Counted from the stretch's first letter, positions 1 to 32,410 are shown. The stretch is DNA of 64,000 nt from an uncultured Chloroflexia bacterium (GCA_963721765.1 CAVRJP010000005.1:207058-271057); one strand, 5' to 3'. Program-made: numbers and translations. The notes: generated by a model not told the origin, from the letters alone.

Positions 1-40
1 CGTCGTCGGCAACGCGGTCTAGGGGGGTGACCCCCGGTAT

Positions 41-76
41 GCGACCCGTCCAACCGGACGGGTCGCGCCGCGTTTT
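41..76 (+). terminator. GC-rich hairpin (11-bp stem gcgacccgtcc/ggacgggtcgc, loop aacc) followed 6 nt later by TTTT; a second hairpin (ggggggtgaccccc) lies just upstream at ~22-35. Possibly the 3' end of an upstream + strand gene, such as a Flp pilin gene outside the window.
   Basis: Inverted repeat read directly from the sequence, with a short T-run 6 nt downstream. Not adjacent to the stem, so non-canonical. Confidence 0.25.
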
Positions 77-177
77 CACCTTGCTGCGCACCTTGCATCG
101 AGCGTGCGCACTTCCCGAAATCTTGCCAGTGGTCCTAGCCCATTCGTATAGTCGCCGGTCATCTGGCCGATGCTAGA

Positions 178-1104
178 GTGGTGCCACCTGTCACACCGAC
201 AGGCATCCATCGCGAACTCATCCGGGGAGGATCCATAACTGTGCGACGGACCAGTCGGCTCGTCCTGCTGCTCGGCATCTTTCTGGCCGCACTGACGTTC
301 GTCGTCGTGCTGTTCCTGCAAGGGCCCAGCACGAACGGCCCAACAGCTAGCGAGAGCCTGCCACCGCAGAATCTGCCCACCGTTGTGGCGGCCCAGGACA
401 TCCCCCTCGGGACCGTCGTGACCGCGGAGATGGTCAGAAACCAAACGCTCGCCGTGAACTCGCGCGATGCCGATGTGCTCGCGGACGTGTCCCAGGCGAT
501 CGGTGAGACCACCCGCGTGACCATCACCGCCGGCGGGCAGGTCCACTCGAGCGACTTCCAGAGCAAGGCTGTCCCGCTCACGGTGCCCGTCGGCGAGCGC
601 GCCTTCGCCATCTCGGTGAGCGAGCTGACCGCTGTCGGGAACCTCGTCGATACAGGCGACAACATCGACATCCTCATCAGCCTCAGCGGCAGCGCCTTCC
701 CGGTGGTGCAGGTCCTGAGCGACGGCTCCGTGACGATCGTGGAGGGCATCAACCCCCTCAGCGTCAAGCTGCCGCTGCTCCTCCAGGACGTACAGATCAT
801 CGGCGTCATCGACTCGCCGGCGCCGCCGCCCGCGGTCGGCGCTGACGGCCAGCCGCTGCCCAGCGCCGAGCCGGTCATCACCAACCTGACCAAGATGCTC
901 ATCTTGTCGGTCACCCCGGCCCAGGCCGAGGTCCTGCTCTACGCCCGAACCGCCGGCACGCTCGACGTGATCCTGCGCTCGCCCGCGGACGCCGGACAGA
1001 CGGTCGAGACCACCGGTGTCATCCTCAAGACCCTCGTCGATCTGTACGGCATCCTGTCGCCCGAGATCGTCCAGGTCCCGATCCCGACCCCACTCGAGAA
1101 CTAG
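178..1104 (+). CDS. cpaB: Flp pilus assembly protein CpaB/RcpC family (N-terminal TM anchor plus SAF-like domain)
   Basis: 308-aa ORF with an N-terminal hydrophobic helix (LVLLLGIFLAALTFVVVLFL). It is the first gene of a cpaB-cpaE-cpaF-tadB-tadC cluster and has high GC3. Confidence 0.75.
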   Translation: MVPPVTPTGIHRELIRGGSITVRRTSRLVLLLGIFLAALTFVVVLFLQGPSTNGPTASESLPPQNLPTVVAAQDIPLGTVVTAEMVRNQTLAVNSRDADVLADVSQAIGETTRVTITAGGQVHSSDFQSKAVPLTVPVGERAFAISVSELTAVGNLVDTGDNIDILISLSGSAFPVVQVLSDGSVTIVEGINPLSVKLPLLLQDVQIIGVIDSPAPPPAVGADGQPLPSAEPVITNLTKMLILSVTPAQAEVLLYARTAGTLDVILRSPADAGQTVETTGVILKTLVDLYGILSPEIVQVPIPTPLEN

Positions 1105-1133
1105 CAGCGGCTCCAGGAGAGGCCCGCAATCCG

Positions 1134-2387
1134 ATGACCGATCGCATCAAGGTCCTGATCGTCGACGACATCCCGGAGACCCGGGACCACCTGTCGAAGC
1201 TCCTCGGCTTCGAGGGCGACGTCGAGGTGGTCGGGGCGGCTGCGGGCGGTCCCGAGGCAATCGAGCTCGCGACGGCGCTCCGGCCGGACGTCGTCCTGAT
1301 GGACATCAACATGCCGGGCATGGACGGCATCACCGCGACCGAGAAATTGGCCGCGGAGGTGCCGACCGCAGCGGTGATCATGATGTCCGTCCAGGGCGAG
1401 GCGGACTACCTCCGCCGATCCATGCTGGCCGGGGCGCGCGAGTTCCTCGTGAAGCCGTTCAGCTCCGACGAGCTGACGGCCTCGATTCGCCAGGTGTGGT
1501 CGCGCGAGAAGGAGAAGCAGTCCCGGTTCGCGCCGATCGTCTCAGGCACCGTGAGCACCGATGGCTCGGGCGACCCGGGATCGATCAGCGCCGTGTTCAG
1601 CCCGAAGGGCGGCGTGGGCCGGACGACCGTGTCCGTGAACCTCGCCGTTGCGGCGGCCCAGACCGGCAAGCGCGTGGCGCTCGTCGATGCCTCGTTCCAG
1701 TTCGGCGACGTCGGCGTGCTGCTGAACCTCAATCCGCGCAACAAGTCGATCGCGGACGTCGCCGCGGAGCTTCAGACTGGCGAGACCGAGTCGATCGACA
1801 ACTTCATGATCACCCACTCGTCCGGCGTCAAGGTCCTCCTGGCCCCTCCGGTCCCGGAGCAGGCGGAGCTGATCGGTCCGGCGGCGATCCAGAAGGTCCT
1901 CCAGGCACTGCGTCCGAACTACGACCTGATCGTCGTGGACTGCCCGTCGAACTTCAACGAGACGACGCTGGCCGTCCTCGACGAGGCAGATTTGATCCTC
2001 ACGCTGCTCACGCTCGAAATCACGAGCGTCAAGAACATGCGCCTCTTCCTGGAGGTCTGTGAGCAGCTGGGCTACGGGCCGGAGAAGATCCGCCTCGTCC
2101 TCAACCGCGCCGATTCGACGCTGGGCATCCGCGTCGCCGACGTCGAGCACTCGATCGGCCGAAAGGTCGATCACACGATCGTCAGCGACGGCCGCAGTGT
2201 TGTGTACGCCTTGAACAGGGGCGTACCGTTCTTCCTGAGCAATCGCGAGGCGCAGGTGTCGCAGGACATCCAGCGCCTGGCCATGGCAGTCACCGGCCCG
2301 CCGCCGACATCAACGACGGCGGCCAAGCCGGGGGACAAGGCTGCCAAGGGCGCAGCCAATCGCAAGTCACTCTTCGCGTGGCGGTAG
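1134..2387 (+). CDS. cpaE: Pilus assembly ATPase CpaE/TadZ with an N-terminal response-regulator receiver (REC) domain
   Basis: N-terminus (KVLIVDDIPETRDHL...VVLMDINMPGMDG...LVKPF) is a canonical REC domain with a phospho-acceptor Asp. C-terminus is a MinD/ParA-like domain with a deviant Walker A (SPKGGVGRTT). Position between cpaB and cpaF. Confidence 0.85.
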   Translation: MTDRIKVLIVDDIPETRDHLSKLLGFEGDVEVVGAAAGGPEAIELATALRPDVVLMDINMPGMDGITATEKLAAEVPTAAVIMMSVQGEADYLRRSMLAGAREFLVKPFSSDELTASIRQVWSREKEKQSRFAPIVSGTVSTDGSGDPGSISAVFSPKGGVGRTTVSVNLAVAAAQTGKRVALVDASFQFGDVGVLLNLNPRNKSIADVAAELQTGETESIDNFMITHSSGVKVLLAPPVPEQAELIGPAAIQKVLQALRPNYDLIVVDCPSNFNETTLAVLDEADLILTLLTLEITSVKNMRLFLEVCEQLGYGPEKIRLVLNRADSTLGIRVADVEHSIGRKVDHTIVSDGRSVVYALNRGVPFFLSNREAQVSQDIQRLAMAVTGPPPTSTTAAKPGDKAAKGAANRKSLFAWR

Positions 2388-2404
2388 TAGGGGGACCGGG
2401 CTAG

Positions 2405-3826
2405 ATGTCTCTTCTCAAGCGCATCGAATCCGCCCGGCCGGCTGGCCCGGGCGATGAAAAGGTCCCGGCGACCACCGGGCAAGGCGGACGCGAACCAGCG
2501 TCCGAAGGTGGGTCTGGCGGCGGAACCGCCCAGTCTTCCCCTCGGCTGGTCACCCAGCTGCCGGCGCGCGAGTCGTTCCGGGACGTCAAGTTCCGGATCC
2601 AGAACCGCGTCATCCAGGATCTCGACCCGAAGCTCGACCTGACCAACCAGGTCGAGGTCCGGCGCCAGATCGAGGAGATCTTCAGCCGGGTCATCGACGA
2701 GGAGGGCCTTGCCCTCACCCGCGCCGAGCGGGTTCGGATGCTCGAGCAGATCACCGACGAGATCATCGGCCTCGGGCCGCTGGAGCCGCTCCTCCGGGAC
2801 GACTCCGTCTCCGAGATCATGGTCAACGGCCCGCGCCAGGTGTACATCGAGCGCGCGGGCAAGCTCGAGCTCACGAACGTGGTCTTCCAGAACGACGACC
2901 ACGTCATGCGCATCATCGACCGGATCATCGCCCCGATCGGGCGCCGCGTGGACGAGTCGTCGCCGATGGTCGACGCTCGCCTGCCCGACGGCTCGCGCGT
3001 CAACGCGATCATCCCGCCGCTGTCGCTCGTCGGCCCGGTCGTCACGATCCGCAAGTTCGCGGCGAGCCCGTTCACGACGGATGACCTCATCCGGTTCGGG
3101 ACGTCGACGCCGGACATGTTCGAGTTCCTCCGGGCGTGCGTCGAGGCGCGCCTGAACATCTTCGTCTCCGGCGGTACCGGCTCGGGCAAGACGACCACGC
3201 TCAACGTCCTCTCCTCGTTCATCCCGAACGACGAGCGGATCGTGACGATCGAGGACGCGGCCGAGCTGCAGCTCCGCCAGGAGCACGTGATCACGCTGGA
3301 ATCCCGGCCCCCGAACATCGAGGGCAAGGGCGCCATCCCGATCCGCGAGCTCGTCCGCAACTCGCTCCGCATGCGGCCCGACCGCATCGTGGTCGGCGAG
3401 TGTCGTGCCGGCGAGGCGCTGGACATGCTCCAGGCGATGAACACGGGCCACGACGGCTCGCTGACGACCGGCCACGCCAACACCCCGCGCGACATGCTCG
3501 CGCGCCTCGAGACGATGGTCCTCATGGCCGGGATCGAGCTGCCGGTGCGCGCCATCCGCGAGCAGATCAGCTCGGCGGTCGACCTGATCGTCCACCAGTC
3601 CCGCCTCAAGGATGGAACACGCAAGATCGTGAACATCACCGAGGTCCAGGGCATGGAGGGCGACACGATCGTCATGCAGGACGTCTTCGTCTTCGAGCAG
3701 ACCGGCGTGATCGACGGCAAGATCCAGGGCCGGCTCAAGCCGACCGGCATCCGGCCGAAGTTCGTCGAGACCTTCGAGGCGATGGGCATCCATCTCCCCA
3801 ACGGCATCTTCGGCTTCGTGTTCTAG
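2405..3826 (+). CDS. cpaF: Type II/IV secretion system ATPase CpaF/TadA
   Basis: Walker A GGTGSGKTT, Walker B/Asp box (IVTIEDAAEL), His box (TGHDGSLTTGHAN). 473 aa. Confidence 0.92.
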   Translation: MSLLKRIESARPAGPGDEKVPATTGQGGREPASEGGSGGGTAQSSPRLVTQLPARESFRDVKFRIQNRVIQDLDPKLDLTNQVEVRRQIEEIFSRVIDEEGLALTRAERVRMLEQITDEIIGLGPLEPLLRDDSVSEIMVNGPRQVYIERAGKLELTNVVFQNDDHVMRIIDRIIAPIGRRVDESSPMVDARLPDGSRVNAIIPPLSLVGPVVTIRKFAASPFTTDDLIRFGTSTPDMFEFLRACVEARLNIFVSGGTGSGKTTTLNVLSSFIPNDERIVTIEDAAELQLRQEHVITLESRPPNIEGKGAIPIRELVRNSLRMRPDRIVVGECRAGEALDMLQAMNTGHDGSLTTGHANTPRDMLARLETMVLMAGIELPVRAIREQISSAVDLIVHQSRLKDGTRKIVNITEVQGMEGDTIVMQDVFVFEQTGVIDGKIQGRLKPTGIRPKFVETFEAMGIHLPNGIFGFVF

Positions 3827-3836
3827 GATCTCGACG

Positions 3837-4850
3837 ATGACCCCAGTCACCCTGATCATCGCCTCGCTCGCCGCGATCTCCATCGTGCTCATTGCACTTG
3901 GCATCGCGATGGCGGGCTCGGGCGGCGTGACCCTCGAACGACTCGAACGCTATGCGTCGGGCACCAAGGCCGCTGATGGCTCGTCCGGCGAGAAGCAAGG
4001 CATCGCCGAGCTCGTTGCAAAGTCGGCGGCCCTCGCCCAGCTCAACAAGGTGGTCGAGCGCCGTGACTTCGGCGCGAACCTGCTGCGTGACCTGGGAGCA
4101 GCGGACCTGAAGCTGAAGCCCTCCGAATACCTCGGCATCTGGGCGACCTCGACGGTCGCGGTGCCCGTGATCATGTACCTGGCGGGCTTCGCGCTGCCGG
4201 CACTGCAGACGATCTGGATGCTCCTGCTGGGCCTGCTGATCGGGTTCATGGTCCCGCGCTTCTGGCTCGGCAATCGCAAGTCCTCCCGCCTCAAGGCGTT
4301 CAACAAGCAGCTGCCCGACACGGTCACGCTGATCGCGAATGCCCTCCGCGCGGGATCGTCGTTCCTGCAGTCGATCGAGATGGTCGTGCGCGAGTCGCGC
4401 CCCCCGATCTCGACCGAGTTCGGCCGGGTCATCCGCGAGGTCAACCTCGGCCTCCCGTTCGACCTCGCCCTCGAGAACATGGTCAAGCGGGTGAAGTCCG
4501 AGGACTTCGAGCTCATGGCAACGGCCATCGCGATTCAGCACCAGGTCGGCGGCAACCTCGCCGAGATCCTCGACTCGATCGCGTTCACGATCCGCGAGCG
4601 CGTCCGGATCAAGGGCGAGATTCGGACCCTGACCGCGCAGCAGCGCCTGTCCGGCTACGTCGTCGGCGGCCTGCCGATCGGCCTCGCGCTGTTCATCTAC
4701 GTCGTGGCACCGAACTTCTTCGCCCCGATGTTCATCGCTCCACCGGAGTTCCTCGGCATCCCGCTGGGGGTGATCCTGTTCGCGATCGCCGGGATCGCGA
4801 TGGGCGCCGGCTTCCTCTTCATTCGTCGCATCGTGGACATCGAGGTCTAG
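3837..4850 (+). CDS. tadB: Tad pilus inner-membrane platform protein TadB (T2SSF domain)
   Basis: 337-aa polytopic membrane protein immediately after cpaF, with a GspF-like pattern (..LPDTVTLIANALRAGSSF..). Confidence 0.8.
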   Translation: MTPVTLIIASLAAISIVLIALGIAMAGSGGVTLERLERYASGTKAADGSSGEKQGIAELVAKSAALAQLNKVVERRDFGANLLRDLGAADLKLKPSEYLGIWATSTVAVPVIMYLAGFALPALQTIWMLLLGLLIGFMVPRFWLGNRKSSRLKAFNKQLPDTVTLIANALRAGSSFLQSIEMVVRESRPPISTEFGRVIREVNLGLPFDLALENMVKRVKSEDFELMATAIAIQHQVGGNLAEILDSIAFTIRERVRIKGEIRTLTAQQRLSGYVVGGLPIGLALFIYVVAPNFFAPMFIAPPEFLGIPLGVILFAIAGIAMGAGFLFIRRIVDIEV

Positions 4851-4853
4851 GCC

Positions 4854-5768
4854 ATGGAACTGGGCATCATCATCGCCGGGGCAGCCGCCCTCTCGGTCCT
4901 GCTGATCGCGTTCGGCGTCGCCGGCGCGCGCCAGGAGGACCCGCTCAAGGCCCGCCTCTCGCAGCTCGGCCAGATGACGGCCAAGGACCTGCAGGAGCTG
5001 GAGCTCCAGCAGCCGTTCTTCGACCGCACGATCAGGCCCCTCGCGGGGCGGCTCTCGGGTTCTGTCTCGAGGATCACCTCGACGTCGTTCTCGGAGCGCA
5101 CGGAGAAGCGCCTGGCCATGGCCGGCTCACCCGGCGACATGAAGGTCGCCGACTGGCTGGGCATCAAGGCGATCGGCATCGGCGTCGGTGCGGGCATCGG
5201 GTTCATCCTGTTCGGCGTCCTGCTCGGCGATGTCACCCAGGGAATCATCATGGCGCTCGTGGGCGCGGGCATCGGCTACATCGGGCCGGAGTTCTGGCTC
5301 GGCGGTCGGGTTCGGGCTCGCCAGAAGGGGATCCTGCTCCAGATCCCGGACGCCCTCGACCTGCTCACGATCTCCGTCCGGGCCGGCCTCGGGTTCGATG
5401 CCGCGCTGGGCAAGGTCGTCGAGAAGCTGAAGGGCCCGCTCGTCGACGAGTTCCGGCGAGCCCTGGCGGAGGTTCGGGTCGGCAAGGCGCGGCGCGAGGC
5501 GCTGCGCGACATCGTCCCGCGGACCGAGGTCCAGCCCCTCACCAACTTCATCGGCGCGATCATCCAGGCCGAGCAGCTCGGCGTCTCGATCTCGAAGGTG
5601 CTCCAGGTCCAGTCGGAGCAGCTCCGCATCGAGCGCCGGCAGCGCGCCGAGGAGATGGCGGCGAAGGCACCGATCAAGATGCTGTTCCCGCTCGTCGGGT
5701 GCATCTTTCCGTCGCTCTTCGTGGTCATCCTCGGGCCGGCCCTGATCCTGATCATGCAGAACCTCTGA
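4854..5768 (+). CDS. tadC: Tad pilus inner-membrane platform protein TadC (T2SSF domain)
   Basis: 304 aa, paralogous to TadB (..IPDALDLLTISVRAGLGF..), adjacent to tadB. Confidence 0.8.
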   Translation: MELGIIIAGAAALSVLLIAFGVAGARQEDPLKARLSQLGQMTAKDLQELELQQPFFDRTIRPLAGRLSGSVSRITSTSFSERTEKRLAMAGSPGDMKVADWLGIKAIGIGVGAGIGFILFGVLLGDVTQGIIMALVGAGIGYIGPEFWLGGRVRARQKGILLQIPDALDLLTISVRAGLGFDAALGKVVEKLKGPLVDEFRRALAEVRVGKARREALRDIVPRTEVQPLTNFIGAIIQAEQLGVSISKVLQVQSEQLRIERRQRAEEMAAKAPIKMLFPLVGCIFPSLFVVILGPALILIMQNL

Positions 5769-5808
5769 CGGCCGGAGTCCTCACGCTCGCCGCGCCCGCG
5801 GCACTGTC

Positions 5809-6204
5809 TTGACCTCCGGAGCTCAGTCGGCCCTGAACGAAACCCGCGGCACGGTGCTGGCACGCCGAGTCGAGATCGCGGGTTCGCTGTGGGCGCGTTT
5901 CATGGGCCTGATGGGCCGGCGCGCGCTCGCCGATGGCGACGGCCTGTACCTCGACGGCAATGGGATCCACATGTTCTTCATGCGCTTCCCGATCGACGCA
6001 GTGTTCGTCGGGCGCCCAACCGCGACGGGTGAGCGCCCGGTCGTCTCCGTGCATCGTCGGCTCCGTCCGTGGCTGGGGATCGTCCCGCTGATCCGTGGCG
6101 CGGCGGGCGTGCTCGAGCTGCCGGCGGGGACGATCGACGCGACCGCGACGGCGCGCGGCGACACCATTCGCATCGACACCGTCGACGCAAGCCGCCTCGA
6201 CTGA
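5809..6204 (+). CDS. DUF192 domain protein (frequently encoded in tad loci)
   Basis: 131 aa; motif G(L)MGRR...GL.L...IHMFFMRFPIDAVF...LELPAG typical of DUF192. Confidence 0.7.
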   Translation: MTSGAQSALNETRGTVLARRVEIAGSLWARFMGLMGRRALADGDGLYLDGNGIHMFFMRFPIDAVFVGRPTATGERPVVSVHRRLRPWLGIVPLIRGAAGVLELPAGTIDATATARGDTIRIDTVDASRLD

Positions 6205-6217
6205 CCGGCGACGCGGC

Positions 6218-7150
6218 ATGATGCGGGCCGGGCTCCGGTCGCCGGACTGGGTCATCCGTCTGTTCGCGCCGATTGCCGTGGGCTCGCGCCGGTTCCCGTC
6301 CCTGGGGCTGACCATCCTCGCTGCCCTGGGAGCGTCCCTGCTCGTGATCGTCGCCGCGACGGAGTGGCGGCACTTCAACGACGAGCATGCGTACTGGCTC
6401 GCGGCGAGCCGGCTCCTCTCGGGAGAGGCGTTGTACGACCCGACGGCGGCGCCGAACACGCCCTTCGCCTACTGGTACCCGCCGCCGCTCGCGCAGGTGC
6501 TCGCGCCGTTGACCCAGCTCGTGTCTGCCGAGGCCTTCAGCGTGGTCTGGACGGCGCTGCTCCTCGGCTGCCTGTGGTGGCTCGGCGGTCGTAACCTCCT
6601 CGTCGCGCTCGCACTCGTCGCGTTCCTGCCGGTGGCAGTGGAGCTCCGCGTGCGGAACGTGCACCTGCTGATGGCCGTGCTGATCGTGCTCGCGCTGCGT
6701 CGGTCGTGGTCGTTCTGGGTGGCGGCGGCGGCGATCAAGATCACGCCCGCACTGGGCGGCCTGTACCTCGCCGCAGCCGGTCGCTGGCGCGATGCCGTGA
6801 AGGTGGGCGTCCTGGGGCTCGCCGTGCTCGGCGTGAGCGTGGCGCTAGGTCCCGAGGCATGGCGCCAGTTCGTCGAGGTCGTCGGGATGCGGGCCGGCGA
6901 GGACGGCGGCTCCATTTTCCCGATCCCATTCGCCATTCGATTCGGCATCGGCGCCGCACTCGTGGTCATCGCCGGCCGCCTGAGTGCCCGCGCGGCGTCG
7001 CGGGGCGCGCGGTCAATCCGCGGCGAGATGCTGCTGGTCGTCGCCCTGACGATCGCCAATCCCACGCTGTGGGTCACGGCCCTGAGCATCCTCGTCGCCA
7101 TCGTGCCCCTGTGGCGATCGAGGGATGATCGGCTGGTGAGCGCCGCTTAA
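6218..7150 (+). CDS. DUF2029 / GT87-like polyprenol-phosphate-mannose-dependent membrane glycosyltransferase (PimE-like), paralog 1
   Basis: Multi-TM protein. Conserved N-terminal loop HAYWLAASRLL...LYDP....PFAYWYPPPLA is shared with the paralog at 10218..11066. Start chosen at the ATG just after the DUF192 stop. Confidence 0.6.
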   Translation: MMRAGLRSPDWVIRLFAPIAVGSRRFPSLGLTILAALGASLLVIVAATEWRHFNDEHAYWLAASRLLSGEALYDPTAAPNTPFAYWYPPPLAQVLAPLTQLVSAEAFSVVWTALLLGCLWWLGGRNLLVALALVAFLPVAVELRVRNVHLLMAVLIVLALRRSWSFWVAAAAIKITPALGGLYLAAAGRWRDAVKVGVLGLAVLGVSVALGPEAWRQFVEVVGMRAGEDGGSIFPIPFAIRFGIGAALVVIAGRLSARAASRGARSIRGEMLLVVALTIANPTLWVTALSILVAIVPLWRSRDDRLVSAA

Positions 7151-7238
7151 CCCGCGGGTGAGGCCGGCGCAACCGGCGGGTGAGGCCGGCGCAACCGGCG
7201 GGCGAGGGCTGCAGAACCGGCGGGTGAGGGCCACCTGC
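7151..7238. repeat. 4 x 22-bp imperfect tandem repeat (consensus CCGGCGGGTGAGGCCGGCGCAA) in the DUF2029-comF intergenic region
   Basis: Read directly: cccgcgggtgaggccggcgcaa / ccggcgggtgaggccggcgcaa / ccggcgggcgagggctgcagaa / ccggcgggtgagggccacctgc. Confidence 0.8.
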
Positions 7239-7250
7239 CATCGTGGCTCG

Positions 7251-7949
7251 ATGCCGCTCCTGCTCGACGTGCGCCGTGCCCTCGGCGCCGCCGCGAACTG
7301 CGCCATCGACCTCGCGCTTCCGGCCGCGTGCGCCGGATGTGGGCGCGAGGGTGCCGCGCTGTGCCGGGAGTGCCTTCCGGCGCTCGACGTGCGGCTGGCC
7401 GCCGATCCGGGCGTGCCCCTCGGCCTGCCCGCGGACATCCCGGCGCCGCTACTCCAGCTCGAATGGTGCGCGCCGTTCACCGGCGTCGCGCGCCGCGCAC
7501 TCCACTCGCTCAAGTACGACGGCGAGCGCCGCCTCGCCGGCCCGCTCGGCGCGGCCTTGGCACGTCGCTGGAGCCGCGCCGGCGTCGCTGGGGACGTGCT
7601 CGTGCCGGTGCCCGCATCGCCGGATCGGGTGCGCGAGCGCGGCTACGACCAGGCGGGCCTCCTCGCGGCCGAGGCGGGCCGGCGACTCGGGCTCCCGGTC
7701 GTGCCCGCCCTCGAGCGCACGCGGGCGACGACCGCGCAGTTCGACCTCGATCGGGTGGCACGGACGAGCAACCTCGGCGGCGCGTTCCGCGTGGCGGATG
7801 TCGGCGTGCGGCACGCCCTGGATGGTCGGTGGGCGGTGCTTGTCGACGACGTCGTGACGACCGGCGCAACCCTCGCGGCATGTGGCGCGGCGCTCCTCGA
7901 GGCGGGCGCGCTCGCCGTCTCCGCGATCGCGGTGGCACGCGAGCGATGA
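7251..7949 (+). CDS. comF: ComF family protein (ComFC-like phosphoribosyltransferase-domain protein)
   Basis: N-terminal Cys cluster (CAGCGREGAALCREC) followed by a PRTase-type motif (VLVDDVVTTGATL). comF-hpf adjacency as in actinobacteria. Start set at MPLLL downstream of the repeat; a GTG at 7158 is the alternative. Confidence 0.75.
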   Translation: MPLLLDVRRALGAAANCAIDLALPAACAGCGREGAALCRECLPALDVRLAADPGVPLGLPADIPAPLLQLEWCAPFTGVARRALHSLKYDGERRLAGPLGAALARRWSRAGVAGDVLVPVPASPDRVRERGYDQAGLLAAEAGRRLGLPVVPALERTRATTAQFDLDRVARTSNLGGAFRVADVGVRHALDGRWAVLVDDVVTTGATLAACGAALLEAGALAVSAIAVARER

Positions 7950-8009
7950 GGACCATCGAGGCACTCGCCCGCGACGACCTCGGCGGTACGATGGACCACC
8001 TGCGGGGAG

Positions 8010-8621
8010 GTGGCCGTGCGGACCGTCGTCAAGGGCAAGAACTACGAGGTGCCGGAACGGATCCGCGAGTACGCGGAGCGGAAGCTCGGCCGGCTCGAGC
8101 GCCTCCTCGACGATCGTTCGGACGCGACCGTGGAGCTGTCCGTGGAAGCCCATCGCAGCCTCCAGGACTCTCACATCGTTGACGTCACGCTCGTGATCGA
8201 TGGCCAGACCCTGCGCAGCTCGGCCGCCGCGCCGAGCCACAAGGCGGGCATCGACAACGTGCTCGACAAGATCGAGCGGCGGGCCGTCGATCACCGCGAG
8301 ACGAGCAGGGTCCGGATGTCGCCCGATACGGTCCGCGGCGGTGGTCGCGCCGGCGACGCGGAGCGAAGCCCGACGCCGGAGGGCGACGAAGAGCGCCCGA
8401 GCGTCGTGAAGGTCAAGCGCTTCGCGATCGAGCCCATGTTCGAGGAGGACGCCGTCGCCCGGATGGAAGAGCTCGGCCACTCGTTCTTCGTGTTCGTCAA
8501 TGCCGAGAACGAGCGGGTGGCAATCCTGTATCGCCGGCGCGAGGGTGACTACGGACTGATCGAGCCGATGGTCGGCGGCGACTACACGAAGGGTGGGCCG
8601 CCTCGTCGCGGACCGCACTGA
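8010..8621 (+). CDS. hpf: Ribosome hibernation promoting factor, long form (HPF/RaiA N-domain plus C-terminal dimerisation domain)
   Basis: VKGKNYEVPERIREYAERKLGRLERLL... and a C-terminal VKVKRFAIEPMFEEDAVARMEELGHSFFVFVNAENERVAILYRRREGDYGLIEP. Confidence 0.88.
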   Translation: MAVRTVVKGKNYEVPERIREYAERKLGRLERLLDDRSDATVELSVEAHRSLQDSHIVDVTLVIDGQTLRSSAAAPSHKAGIDNVLDKIERRAVDHRETSRVRMSPDTVRGGGRAGDAERSPTPEGDEERPSVVKVKRFAIEPMFEEDAVARMEELGHSFFVFVNAENERVAILYRRREGDYGLIEPMVGGDYTKGGPPRRGPH

Positions 8622-8652
8622 CGAACCAGCGCCCGCCGAGCGACCGACCGGT

Positions 8653-10221
8653 GTGGCCTGGTTCGACAGGCTCGCGCTCGTGGCCGTTATGGGCATGGCC
8701 GCCCTCCTGCGGCTCCCGGGCATCGACGCGCGGGGCCAGTTCGACTCGGACCAGGGCCACGACATGCTCACGCTCGTGGCGTTGACGCGGGACGGTGTCG
8801 TCCCGCTGCTCGGCCCGAGGACGTCGGTGGGTGATTTCCACCACGGCGCGTTCTACTACTACCTCCTCGCCCCCGCCAGCGCCGTCTCGAATGGCGATCC
8901 CGTCGCGGTCACGGCGTTCATCGCCCTGCTCGGGATCGCGGCCGTCGCGCTCACGTGGTGGCTCGCCCGCTCCATGGCCGGCTCTCTCGCGGGATTCCTG
9001 GCCGGGTTCCTCCTCGCGATCTCGCCCGCCGCGATCGAGGAGTCGACGTTCATCTGGAACCCGAACCCGATCGGGTTCTTCGCGGTGCTCTCGCTCGCGG
9101 CAGCGTGGCGCGCGCATACGGGCGGCCGCGCGGCGTGGTGGGCCGTGGCGCTCGGTGCAGCCGGCGCGGTGGTGCAGCTGCACGTGCTCGGGGTCGTCTT
9201 CCTCCTGGCGATCGTGGTCCTCGGCCTGCTCGAGCTCCGCCGCGACCGCTCCGTTGCCTTCGGCCTCCTCGGCGGGCTCGGCGTGATCGCGTTGCTGTTC
9301 CTGCCCCTGCTCGCCCACGAGCTCGGGTCGGGCTTCAGTGAGACGACTGGCGTGCTCGCCTATCTCCAGGGCGGCGATGCGGCTCCATCGGATCCGATCT
9401 CGGCGCTCGCGTTCACGCTCCTCCGGGTCGTCGGCTGGCCGCTCGTCGGCCTCGTGACCGAGGCGCCCCAGCTGGCGGCGATCGCCCTCGCGGTCACCGT
9501 GAGCCTCGTCGTGGCGGGCCTGCGTCTCAGCCGTGGGCGCACCTTGACGGGCATGCACTGGCTCGTCGGCATTCTGGCCTGGAGCACCGTCGCGCTCGCG
9601 CTCGCGGCGCCGTCACTCCAGCGGGTCGTCGCCGGCCTCCCGAACGACCACTACCACGCGTTCGTCGACCCGATCGTGGCGATGCTGATCGCGATTCCCG
9701 CCACCGGCCTGTTCGTCCGTGCCGTTGAGGCCTGGCGGAGCAGCCGGCGACCAACCGGGCTGATCGCTGCCACGGCCATTGCGGCCGGCCTCATCGTGCT
9801 CGCGGCCGTGATGGTCGAGCGCATGCCGCCGGCGGTCGACCCGGACGGTGGCTGGCCATTCGCGAAGCGCGCCGGAGAGCGGATCGTCGCCACGGTCAAC
9901 GGCGCGCCCCTCACCTTGTTCGGGCTGCCAACCTCCAAGTCGACCGAAGGCATCGAATTCCCGATCGATGCCGCCGGAGGGCAGGTCCTCCGGCATATCG
10001 ATCTGATCGGCTTCCCGTCGGAGACGGATGTGGTCGTCCTCGTGTGTGATCGCCTGTTCGAGCACATCATCGGCGCCGCATGTGGCGGTCCGGCCGAGGA
10101 CGCCTTTCTCAACGAGCTCGCAGCGACCGCCTTCGATGGGCCGACACCGACGCTGGTCGAGCGGTTCGACGCCTCGCCAAGGACGGCAATATCGATCTAC
10201 CGGCCGGTCGAGACGCCGTGA
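8653..10221 (+). CDS. GT-C fold membrane glycosyltransferase, PMT_2/ArnT-like (GT39/GT83-like)
   Basis: About 12 TM helices. First-loop acidic motif (QFDSDQGHD) typical of GT-C enzymes. Large C-terminal soluble domain. Start uncertain: GTG at 8653 chosen; the ORF opens at 8593, overlapping hpf. Confidence 0.55.
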   Translation: MAWFDRLALVAVMGMAALLRLPGIDARGQFDSDQGHDMLTLVALTRDGVVPLLGPRTSVGDFHHGAFYYYLLAPASAVSNGDPVAVTAFIALLGIAAVALTWWLARSMAGSLAGFLAGFLLAISPAAIEESTFIWNPNPIGFFAVLSLAAAWRAHTGGRAAWWAVALGAAGAVVQLHVLGVVFLLAIVVLGLLELRRDRSVAFGLLGGLGVIALLFLPLLAHELGSGFSETTGVLAYLQGGDAAPSDPISALAFTLLRVVGWPLVGLVTEAPQLAAIALAVTVSLVVAGLRLSRGRTLTGMHWLVGILAWSTVALALAAPSLQRVVAGLPNDHYHAFVDPIVAMLIAIPATGLFVRAVEAWRSSRRPTGLIAATAIAAGLIVLAAVMVERMPPAVDPDGGWPFAKRAGERIVATVNGAPLTLFGLPTSKSTEGIEFPIDAAGGQVLRHIDLIGFPSETDVVVLVCDRLFEHIIGAACGGPAEDAFLNELAATAFDGPTPTLVERFDASPRTAISIYRPVETP

Positions 10222-11066
10222 TCGGGCTCGTCCGGCGACGCCGGCGCCTGATCGATCGATCCCTGCGCCTGGCGTTCGTCGTGGTCCTCGTCGTGTTCAC
10301 CATCCTTCGGCCGGTCGAGGCCGGGGACGCCCACGCCTACTGGGCGGTCGATCTCGCCGACCCATACACGCGACCCGTGGCCACGCCCGACGCATTCACC
10401 TATCCCCCACCGGCCGCGCTGTTCTTCGGCGTCCTCGGCCAGCTCCCGTTCGAGGCCTTCCAGGCGATCTGGACGCTCCTGATCGGGTTCGCGCTGCTCT
10501 GGCTGACCGGGCCGTGGGCGCTCGCGTTTCTCGTGATCCCCGTGGTCGCGTCCGACCTGTACCTCGGCAACATCCACGTTCTCCTGGCGGCCGCGGTGGT
10601 CGGCTCGCTGCGCTGGCCGGCGCTGTGGGCGATCCCACTCCTGACGAAGCCGACCTGCGGCGTCGCCCTGCTGTGGTTCGCGGCGCGGGGCGAGTGGCGC
10701 CGCCTCGCGGTGGCCATCGGTGTGACCGCGGCGATCGCAGGCCTCACCGCGATCCTGGCGCCGACGCTGTGGCCCAAGTGGGTCGACTACGTGCTCGCGA
10801 CCGGCGTCGCACCGAATGTCGGGTCGGCCTCGTGGGTCCCGCTCCCGTTGCTCCTCCGGCTGCCGGCGGCGGCGATCCTCGTCATCTGGGGCGCCCGCAC
10901 CGATCGACCCTGGACGCTCCCGACCGCCGCCATGCTTGCCCTGCCCGTCCTCTGGCTCGTGGGCCTGGCGATGCTCGCCGGCGCCTTTGCCCTCTCCCCA
11001 TGGGGCCCGCTGCGCCACCTGGGCCGCCCGCACCCAGCGACAGGACTCGTGATCGACCGCCCATGA
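10218..11066 (+). CDS. DUF2029 / GT87-like membrane glycosyltransferase, paralog 2
   Basis: Shares the HAYWAVDLADPY...FTYPPPAALF loop with the 6218..7150 protein. The GTG start overlaps the stop of the preceding gene (GTGA). Confidence 0.6.
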   Translation: MIGLVRRRRRLIDRSLRLAFVVVLVVFTILRPVEAGDAHAYWAVDLADPYTRPVATPDAFTYPPPAALFFGVLGQLPFEAFQAIWTLLIGFALLWLTGPWALAFLVIPVVASDLYLGNIHVLLAAAVVGSLRWPALWAIPLLTKPTCGVALLWFAARGEWRRLAVAIGVTAAIAGLTAILAPTLWPKWVDYVLATGVAPNVGSASWVPLPLLLRLPAAAILVIWGARTDRPWTLPTAAMLALPVLWLVGLAMLAGAFALSPWGPLRHLGRPHPATGLVIDRP

Positions 11067-11069
11067 ATC

Positions 11070-11104
11070 GACGAACGCCGGCGCCCCGAGCGCCGGCGTT
11101 CGTC
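11070..11104. terminator. Perfect 15-bp-stem hairpin (gacgaacgccggcgc-cccga-gcgccggcgttcgtc) between convergent genes; candidate bidirectional terminator
   Basis: Perfect inverted repeat 4 nt after the GT87 stop codon and ~55 nt from the stop of the convergent XRE gene. No U-tract, as is common in high-GC bacteria. Confidence 0.45.
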
Positions 11105-11159
11105 TGCCCCTGGACCGGAGGCGTGGAGGCCACCCCCGGATCAGCTGATGGATTCGGTG

Positions 11160-11714
11160 TTAGCGATCCGAAGGTCGGACCGGACGAAGTCGGGGTGTGA
11201 TCGGTTGCCGCCGCGTTTCGACGGCGACCCGGCTGCTGCCCCCCGCAACGAGGGACGGCCGAGGCACGATGGGCCCGGTCATCGCGGGCGCGAGCGGCCG
11301 CGGTTCGGTTCGATTGGGTTCGGTCCGCTGCACGCGGCTCGCGTCACTCGCGAAGGTCGAGCCGACGCGACGCATCCGCACCGCGAGGTAATACTCCATG
11401 ACCTGGCGGACCTGGGCCTCGCTCAGGGACTCGTCGGCGCGCAGGGCGTACTCGACGCGCGCGGTCGGGTTCTGGACCCCGCCACCGATGAGGCCGAGGT
11501 ACTGCGGGCCGTCGTCGTTCTCGCCCAGCTCACGCAGCCCTCGGGCGAGCTTCGTCGCCGTGCCGAGGGAGGGCATGCGGTCGCCGCGAACCAGCCGCGA
11601 GATCGTCGAATGGTCGACGCCCGACTGTTGTGCGAGCTGTCGCTGCGACATCTTCTTGGCCTTCAGCTGGGCACGCAGCCACTCGTTGAAAGCACGGCCG
11701 TTGGTCCGGGTCAT
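11160..11714 (-). CDS. XRE-family helix-turn-helix transcriptional regulator with an uncharacterised C-terminal domain
   Basis: HTH_XRE signature (MSQRQLAQQSGVDHSTISRLVRGDRMPSLGTATKLARGL). Start set at the internal ATG (MTRTNG...), because the longer ORF prefix is low-complexity R/P-rich. Confidence 0.6.
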   Translation of the reverse strand: MTRTNGRAFNEWLRAQLKAKKMSQRQLAQQSGVDHSTISRLVRGDRMPSLGTATKLARGLRELGENDDGPQYLGLIGGGVQNPTARVEYALRADESLSEAQVRQVMEYYLAVRMRRVGSTFASDASRVQRTEPNRTEPRPLAPAMTGPIVPRPSLVAGGSSRVAVETRRQPITPRLRPVRPSDR

Positions 11715-11965
11715 GGGCCCGATGATCGATGGCACCCGATTCAGTCCATATCCCCCGTTCGTACATGACCCTTCGGCAGATGGGCGACTATCGAGGGGGT
11801 CGACCGTGGGCGGTCCTGTGCGGTCGGTCGCCGAGGGGTGAGGTCCGCTGCGGTCGAGCCGAGATCGACGGGTACCAGTGGATCGCACACCCGGCTTCGT
11901 GGCCCGAATCGGCCACCGATTCGAACCTCGTCGGGGCGTCGAGTCCTATCGCATCGCGAGCAGGC

Positions 11966-13102
11966 TCAGGCGGGCGCAGCGGCCCTCGCGCCGAGCCCAC
12001 GGCGCTTCGGCGAGATGGCATACGCGATCGATCCGATCACGATGATCGAGAGCACGCTGATCGCCCGGTCGACGAGCGTGATCGCCAGCGCGTCGGTCTG
12101 CGAGACGCCGTAGACGATGGTCAGGAGCCCGACCACGCCACCCTCGACGAAGCCGATGCCCGCGGGCGTCAGCGGGACGGCGGTCAGCAGCGAGGCCGCG
12201 AGGGCCACGAAGAACGCGCCGCTGATCCCGAGGTGAACCCCGGGCAGCCCGAGCGCCTGCACGACCAGGTACAGGCGCATCGCCTCGGTCGCCCAGATGA
12301 ACCCGGTCAGGATCACCAGCCGCGGCAGGGCGCGCAGGCCCATCGACGCGAAGACCCCCTCCTCGAACCGGTCGTAGAACTCGAGCACCCGGTGCGGGAG
12401 CGGCAGCCTGGTGAGGATTCGCCGGCCGAAGTTGCGCATCGTCAGCAACCCGCCGGCGAGGACGATCACGAACACCACGCCGATCGCGAACACGATCTGG
12501 ACGTCGGCCGGCAGCCCGCTCCGGAACGAGACGAAGCCCGCCGCGAGGCCCAGGACGACGATCGCGAAGAGGTCCAGGATGCGCTCGATGAACACGGTCC
12601 CGAACGTTCGCGACAGCGAGACCGGGCTGTTGATCTTGAGCAGGTACGCCCGATACACGTCGCCCAGCTTGGCCGGCACGAGGCAGTTCACGAGCCACGA
12701 CAGGAAGATGATCTCGGTCGCGTCCTTGACCTTCAGCGGGAACCCGCTCTGGCGAACGAGGAGCGCCCAGCGCAGCCCGCGCAGCGGGAAGCCGAGGTAG
12801 AAGATCGCGAACGCACCGAGGAGGAGCAGCGGGTTCGCCCCGAGGATCTTGTCGGGCAGCTCCTCGAGCTTGAAGCCGGGCAGGCTGCGCACGAACAGGA
12901 CGAGGAGCACGATCGGCAGGACGAGCGAGATGATCGTGCGCGGCTGACGGAGCCGTCTCGAGAGCGAGAGCTGGTCCGCGCGGACCTGGGCTTCCGCGGC
13001 GGTGGTCTCCGCCGGTCGATCCGAGATCACCGGGTCGTGGGCGGTAGTCGGGTCATCGGCGGTCGCCTGTTGGTCGGCCGCCTTCGGGTCGTCGGCGGTC
13101 AA
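11966..13102 (-). CDS. Lysylphosphatidylglycerol-synthase-TM-like (UPF0104/flippase-like) membrane protein
   Basis: 378 aa, ~8 TM. The pattern LRWALLV...KLGDVYRAYLL matches the LPG_synthase_TM family, which is commonly paired with a PHP-domain gene. Confidence 0.65.
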   Translation of the reverse strand: MTADDPKAADQQATADDPTTAHDPVISDRPAETTAAEAQVRADQLSLSRRLRQPRTIISLVLPIVLLVLFVRSLPGFKLEELPDKILGANPLLLLGAFAIFYLGFPLRGLRWALLVRQSGFPLKVKDATEIIFLSWLVNCLVPAKLGDVYRAYLLKINSPVSLSRTFGTVFIERILDLFAIVVLGLAAGFVSFRSGLPADVQIVFAIGVVFVIVLAGGLLTMRNFGRRILTRLPLPHRVLEFYDRFEEGVFASMGLRALPRLVILTGFIWATEAMRLYLVVQALGLPGVHLGISGAFFVALAASLLTAVPLTPAGIGFVEGGVVGLLTIVYGVSQTDALAITLVDRAISVLSIIVIGSIAYAISPKRRGLGARAAAPA

Positions 13103-30981: not shown

Positions 30982-31194
30982 CTACGCCCGGACCTGGCGC
31001 TCCAGCCGCTTCTGGAACCGCTCGACCTGGCCCGCCGTGTCGATGATGTTCTGCGTGCCCGTGTAGAACGGGTGGCAGTTGCCGCAGACGTCGACGCGGA
31101 GCTCGGGCCGCGTGGAACCGACGATCCACTCGCGGCCGCACGAGCCGCAGTGGACCTTCGATTCGAAGTACTTGGGGTGGATCTCGGGCTTCAT
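30982..31194 (-). CDS. rpmE: 50S ribosomal protein L31 (Zn-ribbon type)
   Basis: [46 protein letters not shown] (CxxC...CxxC). The ATGA overlaps the rpmA stop. Confidence 0.93.
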
Positions 31195-31472
31195 GCCGTG
31201 GTCGCTTCCTCGGCCGCTGTGGCCGGGATCACGCGAACGCGCTTCTTCGACTTCGTGGCGTACTCGAACTTGACGTTGCCCGCGGTCGTCGCGAAGAGGG
31301 TGTAGTCGCCGCCGAGGTCCGTGCCCGAACCGGCGAGGAACGTCATGCCGCGCTGGCGGACGATGATCGTTCCGGCCGAGACGAGCTGGCCGTCGCCGGC
31401 CTTGATCCCGAGTCGTTGACCGCGGCTGTCGCGCCCGTTCTTGACGGAGCCGCCGGCCTTCTTGTGTGCCAT
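31191..31472 (-). CDS. rpmA: 50S ribosomal protein L27
   Basis: [29 protein letters not shown]... is the canonical L27 N-terminus. Confidence 0.95.
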
Positions 31473-31475
31473 GGG

Positions 31476-32220
31476 TCAGCCCTCCCCGCTCTTGCGGGTG
31501 CGTGATGTCTTCGGCTTGCTTGCCTTGGTGCCTGTTGCGGCGTCCGCGGCATCGGCCGCGGCCGCCGAACCGGTGGTATCGGGCTTCGCGCCCTTGGCGC
31601 GGGTCGTCGAGCTCTCCGCAGTCGAGGCCCCGGCTTTCGCGGGCTTGGCCTTCGGTGCGGCGCGTCGATTCCTTCGTTGCCGTCGTGGGCGCCTTGCCGG
31701 ACGGCTCTGCCTTGCTCACGCCACGCTTCGGCTTGCTCGAGGCCTTCGCTTCGTCGGTCTTCTCGGCCTTCGCCGCCCGATCGGCGGCAAGCTTCTCGGC
31801 GAGGGCCGCATCCTGCTCGGCCTGACGTCGGGCGCCTTCCTCGAGTCGCTGGCGCTCGGTCTTGCGCGCCTCCTCGGCCTTGACGGCGGCCTCGGCCGCG
31901 CTCTTGCCGTCGAGCACGATGTCGCTGATCCGGATGACCGTCAGCTCCTGGCGATGGCCCTTCTTGACCCGCCGGCGCGCCTTGGGCCGGTACTTGAAGC
32001 TGATGAGCTTTTCGCCCCGATCGCGTCGCAGGACCTCGGCCGCGACGGAAGCGTTCGCGATGACCGGATGACCAATCGATGCGGTCTCGCCGTCCGCCAC
32101 GAGGAGCACGCGGTCGAACGCGACCGACTCGCCGGCGCCGGCCTCGAGCAGCTCGATCTCGAGCTCCGTGCCGACCTCGACTCGGTATTGCTTCCCGCCG
32201 GTCTCGATGACTGCGTACAT
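31476..32220 (-). pseudogene. rplU: 50S ribosomal protein L21 with a long K/A/P/T-rich C-terminal tail; the reading frame is broken by an apparent 1-nt indel at ~31640-31680
   Basis: MYAVIETGGKQYRVEVG... (L21 core) continues as ...AKAEKTDEAKASSKPKRGVSKAEPSGKAPTTATKESTRR. That frame then runs unstopped through rpmA. A shift to the neighbouring frame gives ...PKAKPAKAGASTAESSTTRAKGAKPD...KASKPKTSRTRKSGEG* ending 3 nt before the rpmA ATG. Confidence 0.7.
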
Positions 32221-32410
32221 GGAACCCCTGGGCGTGGCTGGCGGTCGCGCGGCGACAACCGCGGCCTGGGAGACAGGAAAAGGCGCCTCGGCAGGCCGAG
32301 GCACGAGCCGGGATTGTACGGCCACGCTCAGGGAGCGTCAATTTGCGCCCCGTCCGGGCAGTGTCTCGGTCTGAGCACGGCGGGCGTTGACCTTGCCCAA
32401 GCTCCGGCCC

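Follow-up and report, generated by a model that had tools for sequence, protein, structure and literature searches.

Do membrane glycosyltransferases encoded beside a pilus assembly operon belong to the pilus system, or do they only lie next to it? This question is raised by the first 11 kb of a stretch of 64,000 nucleotides (nt) of DNA from an uncultured Chloroflexia bacterium (GCA_963721765.1 CAVRJP010000005.1:207058-271057; G+C approximately 0.69), which over its whole length is referred to here as the window and whose positions serve as coordinates throughout. Genes of a Tad/Flp pilus assembly system (cpaB, cpaE, cpaF, tadB, tadC, and a DUF192 gene) are followed by three GT-C glycosyltransferase genes, i.e., GT87-1, a PMT/ArnT-like gene (hereafter PMT-like), and GT87-2, with comF and hpf between the first and the second of these. 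An initial annotation had read this co-linearity as a sign of pilus-linked glycosylation. Open reading frame (ORF) listing together with Pfam and NCBIfam scans recovered all eleven genes on the + strand and in the order claimed, an order that is not due to chance as it recurs in 25 fetched loci. The assignment of the three enzymes to the GT-C type was likewise borne out: GT87-1 has the PimE fold, GT87-2 matches PF09594, and the PMT-like protein is closest to ArnT.

The proposed tie to the pilus held at the genomic level for GT87-1, which accompanies the Tad genes in every syntenic relative and has counterparts in three further layouts, and fell for the PMT-like gene and GT87-2. We favor a composite reading, to which we give a probability of roughly 0.45. 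The three enzymes would use polyprenol-phosphate sugars, the PMT-like protein and GT87-2 would form a general pair, and GT87-1 would be an accessory of the Tad system acting on the tail of the Flp pilin or on a surface glycan. Within this reading, a functional link between GT87-1 and the Tad system is plausible on genomic grounds, and glycosylation of Flp by GT87-1 is our leading guess.

GT87-1 as the probable last gene of the Tad operon

The AlphaFold2 model of GT87-1 was of moderate confidence (mean per-residue confidence score, pLDDT, 77.8), and its best Foldseek match in the PDB was PimE (9dm7/9dm5; probability 1.0, TM-score 0.59-0.60, 21-22% identity). Sequence searches against PDB chains with GT87-1, the PMT-like protein, and a GT87 profile gave no match, so that fold comparison alone succeeded. 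The residues D55/Y59, E142, N147, H149, K174, and R191 of GT87-1 are invariant, and the pair D55 and Y59 is so across 11 divergent homologs and 54 orthologs/co-orthologs. In PimE, D58 is catalytic with Y62 as its partner, and K195 binds phosphate (PMC12041525). D55 opens the helix after the first transmembrane segment (TM1) in the GT87-1 model, and the putative equivalence of D55/Y59 to the PimE pair D58/Y62 is drawn from their identical spacing; K174 may correspond to K195. Judged by its sequence, GT87-1 is not an ortholog of PimE: it scored 37.8 bits against the NCBIfam PimE equivalog PRK13375, for which the cutoff is 413, and is approximately 120 residues shorter. GT87-1 and GT87-2 belong to a paralog-rich family and are true paralogs of each other, with 37% of residues identical over 171 aa (E 6e-18), and the Asp/Tyr pair is present in GT87-2 as D37/Y41.

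For synteny we used 80 genome loci plus 3 from look-ups, mapped by tblastn and divided into group A (25 loci) and group B (58 loci). The scan of the genome collection was queried with a 6-sequence alignment, an 11-sequence alignment being too diverse, and gene trees were rough neighbor-joining trees. Almost all homologs and genome loci derive from metagenome-assembled genomes labelled Chloroflexota/Candidatus Limnocylindria, a soil class. A "Dormibacteraeota" label on one relative was set aside, nearly all genome records being Chloroflexota/Limnocylindria, and the odd fusions seen in P0141 and some other database proteins were put down to frameshift artefacts. The labels of several relatives conflict (L002/L005, DASQIK010000016.1; L011; L096), with Dormibacteraeota, Eisenbacteria, and Gemmatimonadales among them. 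Binning or labelling errors are likely in these cases, since the loci are collinear with those of Limnocylindria or carry pilins nearly identical to theirs.

Group A consists of loci in which GT87-1 is 54-75% identical to that of the window and the entire order from flp to the atp operon is kept. The succession tadC-DUF192-GT87-1 was found in all 23 syntenic loci, with a DUF192-GT87-1 junction of -55 to +87 nt, and the DUF192 gene is the constant last-but-one gene of the Tad operon in the clade of the window. The expectation that the glycosyltransferases would be conserved with the tad genes thus held for GT87-1 (23/23 syntenic loci) and failed for the other two, which are lost from some loci while Tad stays. 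Specifically, the right-hand part of the group A loci is fluid. In many of them, hpf and the PMT-like gene are separated by an AP_endonuc_2 (endonuclease IV-like) gene (e.g., L004 8568-9653; L031 12756-13985; L038 10134-11150; L012 5277-6470), which the window and its closest relatives are without, and in one locus (L039) an insert of 1 kb precedes hpf. GT87-2 is absent from 5 of the 13 informative syntenic loci (12 relatives and the window itself), all of which keep Tad, and the PMT-like gene survives only as a 63-codon remnant in L022, where Tad and GT87-1 are retained. The PMT-like gene and GT87-2 therefore form a separate and dispensable unit. Since the housekeeping genes comF and hpf and, in relatives, the AP endonuclease gene are interleaved, hpf has a -10-like element of its own, and GT87-2 and the PMT-like gene are lost where Tad is kept, the 11-kb run is several adjacent units and not one module, and the view that the three GT-C enzymes and Tad make up one unit had to be given up.

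Small GT87 genes in and outside pilus loci

Seven contexts were distinguished among deeper-branching GT87 representatives. Four are without Tad (tandem GT87s; GT87 with GT2; LPG_synthase_TM-GT87-GT2; GT87-GNAT-GT4) and three adjoin pilus genes, each with a different layout and a different GT87 subfamily. The first of the latter (L088) has the layout flp-flp-GT87-cpaB...tadC-DUF192-comF, with Tad proteins 62-82% identical to those of the window and no GT87 after DUF192, and shows identical spacings in a second assembly. Its GT87 belongs to another subfamily (42% identical, nearest to a cluster-type GT87), and its gene is placed after the pilin terminator and ahead of the conserved cpaB promoter. 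In the second (L090, L091, and L094), a divergent operon of SAF, ParA-like, T2SSE, and TadBC-like genes (CpaF 33% identical) ends in HTH-GT87 (HTH, helix-turn-helix) with a 4-nt overlap. In the third (L096), the GT87 gene and a pair of flp genes converge. The base rate was zero Tad loci and one flp gene in 995 kb around 114 other GT87 ORFs, which makes it unlikely that the recurrence of flp/tad neighbors is due to chance. A scan of metagenomes with the deep-branching GT87s returned 3 loci only, and a scan of viral sequences returned none.

Several observations weigh against a role of GT87-1 in the pilus. Adjacency inside the syntenic clade is weak evidence, because collinearity there extends over all 20 kb, with mreB, murA, and the atp operon included. 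Moreover, unrelated genes in this genome often overlap or lie very close together (e.g., mreB/murA). The recurrence outside the clade rests on a small sample and rough trees: L096 is a short contig (2.6 kb), the GT87 of L088 has its own promoter-like site, and no recognizable Flp pilin was found in the L090 system. No GT2 polyprenol-phosphate-sugar synthase was found in the window, and no density for a glycan is seen in the Caulobacter Tad pilus (PMC10710030). A further point is the genomic setting of the closest co-orthologs of both GT87s, which in the 58 Limnocylindria loci of group B lie in glycan clusters and not beside tad/flp. These loci carry a GT87-1-like gene 43-59% identical to GT87-1, and 54 of them have at least 2 kb of upstream sequence. 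In none of the 58 was tad, DUF192, comF, or hpf found, and a single flp gene was 9.5 kb away. Instead, the neighbors, in arrays that resemble operons, are small GT87 paralogs, GT2 enzymes resembling dolichyl/undecaprenyl-phosphate sugar synthases, GT4, and PIG-L, as well as PIG-V-like and PMT_2 GT-Cs, GNAT, and membrane-fused spermidine-synthase-like proteins. One or more of the GT2, GT4, PIG-L, PIG-V-like, PMT_2, and GNAT genes were present in 50 of the 58 loci. Group B genes are the nearest relatives of GT87-1 in the neighbor-joining tree, and relatives of GT87-2 occur in the same clusters. Finally, no site was conserved in one form among Tad-linked GT87-1 orthologs and in another among cluster-linked ones (42 sites were shared). 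Both contexts therefore probably involve one and the same reaction, which could be a step in envelope glycan synthesis. Taken alone, group B argues that the enzymes carry out envelope-glycan steps and that adjacency to Tad is specific to one clade.

The strongest alternative follows from these data: that there is no link to the pilus and that all three GT-C enzymes build an envelope lipoglycan or polysaccharide, resembling phosphatidylinositol mannoside/lipomannan (PIM/LM) or glycosylphosphatidylinositol (GPI), from genes that happen to lie in a collinear core region. The company kept by group B relatives, the lack of functional-shift sites, the synteny of the housekeeping genes, and the dispensability of GT87-2 and the PMT-like gene in genomes with Tad all agree with it. 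However, it leaves the three additional layouts to coincidence, and with a chance of 1-2% assumed per lineage, three further hits among approximately eight lineages would be very unlikely, though this is a rough estimate. We regard this alternative as quite possible. An earlier reading of the linkage as purely incidental, based on the loci without Tad genes, was softened because deeper GT87 lineages have flp/tad neighbors.

A second alternative shares the genomic association with our composite reading and leaves the pilin unmodified: GT87-1 would make or extend an adhesive (holdfast-like) glycan, or remodel the envelope at the site of the pilus, and its expression together with the pilus would serve attachment. 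GT87-1 orthologs act within multi-enzyme glycan pathways and their function appears unchanged between the two contexts, both of which suit this idea; on the other hand, Pfam and NCBIfam detected no polysaccharide export or polymerase genes at the locus. Sequence data do not distinguish it from pilin glycosylation, and we hold it to be improbable. Lastly, one strand, short gaps, the order kept in the closest relatives, and the absence of a strong-scoring terminator-like hairpin before the end of GT87-2 would suit a single co-transcribed pilus-glycosylation module made of the Tad genes and all three GT-C genes, but the interleaved genes, the -10-like element of hpf, and the losses described above make this scarcely credible.

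Some features of the loci compared above are of interest in their own right. The glycan clusters (e.g., L061 5875-12000 and L041 8128-18200, from the set L016-L083) hold 2-5 small GT87 paralogs, a GNAT protein of the Acetyltransf_6 type, and two unannotated polytopic proteins. This gene set recalls, by analogy, PIM/LM or GPI-like glycolipid synthesis, and our literature search returned no description of such a cluster for Limnocylindria. The window itself, at 62245-64000 and running off its end, encodes a fusion of a large membrane protein with a spermidine-synthase-like domain ("fused MFS/spermidine synthase"; MFS, major facilitator superfamily). Three families with this label recur in GT87 glycan clusters (e.g., L081 14146-16569), and the window's protein is 50% identical to a copy beside GT87-1-like genes in L024, L032, and L081. 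The L090-type operon (L090 1-11100, L091, and L094) adjoins genes for FtsK/SpoIIIE, DUF6744, and an M23 peptidase. Its GT87 (P0160) is represented in the database by 20 near-identical members, spread over many samples and dozens of contigs, a distribution suggestive of a mobile element or of an organism that is widespread.

Gene content and control signals of the locus

The features of the locus are given in Table 1. The starts of cpaB, GT87-1, comF, hpf, and the PMT-like gene were reset by alignment with relatives. For cpaB, this replaces a start previously set at 178 by a GTG codon behind a conserved Shine-Dalgarno sequence.

Table 1. Coordinates of genes and signals in the first part of the window
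Feature	Position	Strand	Evidence and remarks
flp pilin gene, 3' end	2..22	+	Last six codons (VVGNAV) and stop; aligns with flp C-termini of relatives
Intrinsic terminator of pilin gene	41..76	+	11-bp stem GCGACCCGTCC / GGACGGGTCGC, 4-nt loop, TTTT tract
Putative regulatory region of assembly operon	77..152	+	Two CACCTTGC direct repeats (77-84, 89-96), then promoter-like TTGCCA-N18-TATAGT (123-152)
cpaB/rcpC-like	241..1104	+	PF16976 and PF08666 (RcpC and SAF); TIGR03177 93.7 bits, cutoff 71
cpaE/tadZ-type ParA-like ATPase, N-terminal receiver domain	1134..2387	+	PF00072 E 6e-28; PF13614 E 7e-17
cpaF/tadA secretion ATPase	2405..3826	+	PF00437 (T2SSE) E 9e-66
tadB, platform protein	3837..4850	+	PF00482 (T2SSF) E 4e-20
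tadC, platform protein	4854..5768	+	PF00482 (T2SSF) E 5e-20
DUF192 protein	5809..6204	+	PF02643 E 4e-14; after tadC in 23 loci and L088
GT87-1, small (310 aa) PimE-fold GT-C glycosyltransferase	6218..7150	+	PF09594 48.4 bits, gathering cutoff 25
Tandem 22-nt repeat CGGCGGGTGAGGCCGGCGCAAC, 4.5 copies	7130..7229	+	Tandem Repeats Finder; spans GT87-1 stop and spacer before comF
comF (ComFC-type phosphoribosyltransferase-like)	7251..7949	+	TIGR00201 E 3e-22 (below trusted cutoff); PF00156
-10-like element of hpf, TACGAT	7987..7992	+	-10-like hexamers upstream of hpf in 14 loci; putative promoter
hpf	8016..8621	+	GTG start, Shine-Dalgarno GGGGAGG; PF02482, PF16321, TIGR00741
PMT/ArnT-like GT-C glycosyltransferase, 522 aa, C-terminal extracytoplasmic domain	8653..10221	+	PF02366 27.9 bits, cutoff 22.7
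GT87-2, second small GT87 paralog, 282 aa	10218..11066	+	PF09594 36.2 bits, cutoff 25
15-bp perfect GC-rich hairpin	11070..11104	.	Between convergent GT87-2 and HTH genes; folding energy -40.4 kcal/mol, z-score -5.5
Flippase-like membrane protein (LPG_synthase_TM)	11966..13102	-	PF03706 E 1e-46; TIGR00374; 0.9 kb from GT87-2

The window begins within a pilin gene, and all relatives with enough sequence have 2-4 full flp genes (GQGLAEYALILA...) directly upstream of the Tad genes, with a processing motif of Gly, four residues, and Glu-Tyr. The tails of these pilins carry 3-5 Ser/Thr (e.g., the extracytoplasmic tail GTQVSGILSTVGASV from a relative), which is common among Flp pilins and not diagnostic of glycosylation. 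Of the components expected of a Tad/Flp assembly system, CpaF/TadA, TadB/TadC, CpaB/RcpC, CpaE/TadZ (with AAA_31, CbiA, and REC domains), and Flp with its processing motif were found. Pilin, prepilin peptidase, and pseudopilin genes had all been presumed to lie upstream, which proved right for the pilin alone. In relatives, the upstream order is histidine kinase, GerE-type response regulator, second kinase, and 2-4 flp genes, and in L001 and L002 the approximately 3 kb upstream of flp hold histidine kinases and a response regulator, with no prepilin peptidase (TadV/CpaA) or pseudopilins (TadE/F) seen. These two components also had no Pfam match among the window ORFs scanned, which did not include every small ORF, and their genes may lie elsewhere in the genome.

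Between flp and cpaB, a putative control region spanning 41-200 is kept in 12 loci, as are the position of the terminator hairpin and the putative promoter, which was identified by a promoter scan. The CACCTTGC repeats have a 12-nt period and may be bound by the response regulator of the GerE type whose gene lies upstream in relatives. The conserved leader before cpaB, GCTAGAGTGGTGCCACCTGTCAC, contains the palindrome GGTG-C-CACC.

Relatives have arrays of similar GTGAGC/GTAAGC units in the same GT87-1/comF spacer that holds the 22-nt repeat in the window. RNA folding of the repeat region was modest (z-score -2.6), no dispersed copies beyond chance were found in the window, the repeat had no Rfam match, and an Rfam scan of 1-12000 detected no known RNA. 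Distant relatives have TATACT in place of TACGAT before hpf. ComFC is a DNA-uptake protein, and its gene comes after the Tad operon in the window and directly after DUF192 in L088 (16768-17960). The pair comF-hpf is old and conserved, which weighs against a link of Tad and comF in DNA uptake. By analogy, such a link is nevertheless conceivable, because Flp pili drive natural transformation in Micrococcus luteus (reviewed in PMC6370729).

The start of the PMT-like gene is supported by an exact 522-aa database entry (P0271), and an overlap with hpf disappeared once it was corrected. The previously reported overlap of the PMT-like stop codon with the start of GT87-2 (GTGA) is real. The PMT-like protein passes PF02366 by a narrow margin and stays under the cutoff of PF13231 (23.5 bits; cutoff 26.1), and many of its homologs carry both as precomputed domains. 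Its AlphaFold2 model (pLDDT 85.1, predicted TM-score 0.87) has the GT-C-A fold with a C-terminal extracytoplasmic domain. Foldseek placed ArnT first (5f15; E 7e-8, TM-score 0.58), followed by the oligosaccharyltransferases AglB and STT3, then ALG9/12 and AftA, with Pmt4 at E 2e-4. The invariant motif in the first loop after TM1, F30-D31-x-D33-Q34-G35-x-D37, is acidic and not the canonical DE. On the basis of the model, we treat the protein as a generic GT-C-A enzyme.

Downstream, the hairpin after GT87-2 probably ends + strand transcription. The LPG_synthase_TM protein encoded beyond it is possibly a flippase of polyprenol-phosphate sugars or glycolipids for the GT-C enzymes. This role is hinted at by the arrangement LPG_synthase_TM-GT87-GT2 in L087 (1588-4291), where the homolog shares 4 nt with the GT87 gene and a GT2 gene comes next. 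The remainder of the window is core housekeeping (atp operon, murA, mreB, rodA, PBP2, parAB, gyrBA, secA, prfA/B, and ftsEX). A 447-codon ORF at 30982-32325 (- strand), with an N-terminal ribosomal L21 domain and a C-terminal L31 domain, probably represents two genes joined by read-through, the high-GC frame being poor in stops.

Proposed working and comparison with known systems

We infer at least two transcription units, one from cpaB through GT87-1 (possibly including comF) and one from hpf through GT87-2. In the first, the conserved promoter 3' of the pilin terminator would drive cpaB-cpaE-cpaF-tadB-tadC-DUF192, with GT87-1 as the likely last gene of the Tad operon and comF next; the second would comprise hpf, the PMT-like gene, and GT87-2, with the AP endonuclease gene directly after hpf in many relatives. 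Each of the three GT-C enzymes is predicted to work at the outer face of the membrane and to use a polyprenol-phosphate sugar as donor. In GT87-1, Asp55 would be the catalytic base, held by Tyr59 as D58 is by Y62 in PimE. The PMT-like protein and GT87-2, which would be translationally coupled, are most likely an initiator and an elongator that are not specific to Tad. The simplest acceptor of GT87-1 would be the Ser/Thr-bearing extracytoplasmic C-terminal tail of the Flp pilin, an economical substrate because its topology places it on the side of the membrane where the enzyme would act; the other candidate would be a surface glycan associated with the pilus. A broader version, in which small GT87s of Chloroflexota and related soil bacteria are dedicated Tad/Flp accessory glycosyltransferases that glycosylate the exposed Flp C-terminal tail, seems to us rather unlikely.

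Tad pili drive adhesion and biofilm formation, as well as DNA uptake in Micrococcus. The repeated presence of GT-C genes in flp/tad loci provides a concrete and testable candidate for Flp modification. If this is correct, small GT87s would be the first enzyme family assigned to glycosylation of a Tad pilin, and polyprenol-phosphate-sugar-dependent surface glycosylation, known from actinobacteria, would extend to the abundant uncultured soil class Limnocylindria. If the link is only positional, the finding is an ordinary one of envelope glycosyltransferases in a collinear core region. The initial annotation went too far in holding that such glycosylation is not described for Tad pili, as passages of one report describe Flp1 of Aggregatibacter actinomycetemcomitans as glycosylated and, in themselves, name no enzyme (PMC6182317). 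Our literature search returned no GT-C gene described in a Tad locus and no enzyme tied to Flp modification.

Compared with the Tad systems of Caulobacter crescentus and A. actinomycetemcomitans, the locus shares CpaB, CpaE, CpaF, TadB, TadC, and the Flp processing motif. However, no secretin was found in its tad set, its CpaE has a receiver domain, and DUF192 and GT87 are appended. With PimE, the mycobacterial GT87 alpha-1,2-mannosyltransferase that depends on polyprenol-phosphate-mannose, GT87-1 shares the Pfam domain, the fold, and the Asp/Tyr spacing after TM1. It differs in its size (approximately 300 aa versus 430), in the lack of a sequence match to PDB entries, and in coming from Chloroflexota rather than from an actinobacterium.

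In actinobacteria, a PMT (GT39) starts protein O-mannosylation and a GT87, for example PimE, carries out the elongation (PMC12757957). By analogy, the PMT-like/GT87-2 pair resembles this arrangement: a PMT-family gene directly precedes, and is coupled to, a GT87 gene, and a polyprenol-phosphate sugar is expected as donor. Against the likeness, the PMT-like protein resembles ArnT in structure more than it does Pmt4, has FDxDQG and not DE, and falls short of the PF13231 cutoff, and GT87-2 is patchily distributed.

The closest precedent for a modification of the pilin itself comes from the type IVa pili of Pseudomonas aeruginosa, in which the glycosylation enzymes TfpW (a GT-C arabinosyltransferase) and TfpO/PilO are encoded beside the pilin genes. 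The present case differs in that Flp/Tad pilins have approximately 40 residues and the candidate enzyme belongs to GT87 and is encoded, in the clade of the window, 6 kb from the pilins at the end of the assembly operon. The two have in common a membrane glycosyltransferase that uses a lipid-linked sugar, predicted as such here, inside a pilus locus, and in L088 the GT87 gene directly follows the pilin genes.

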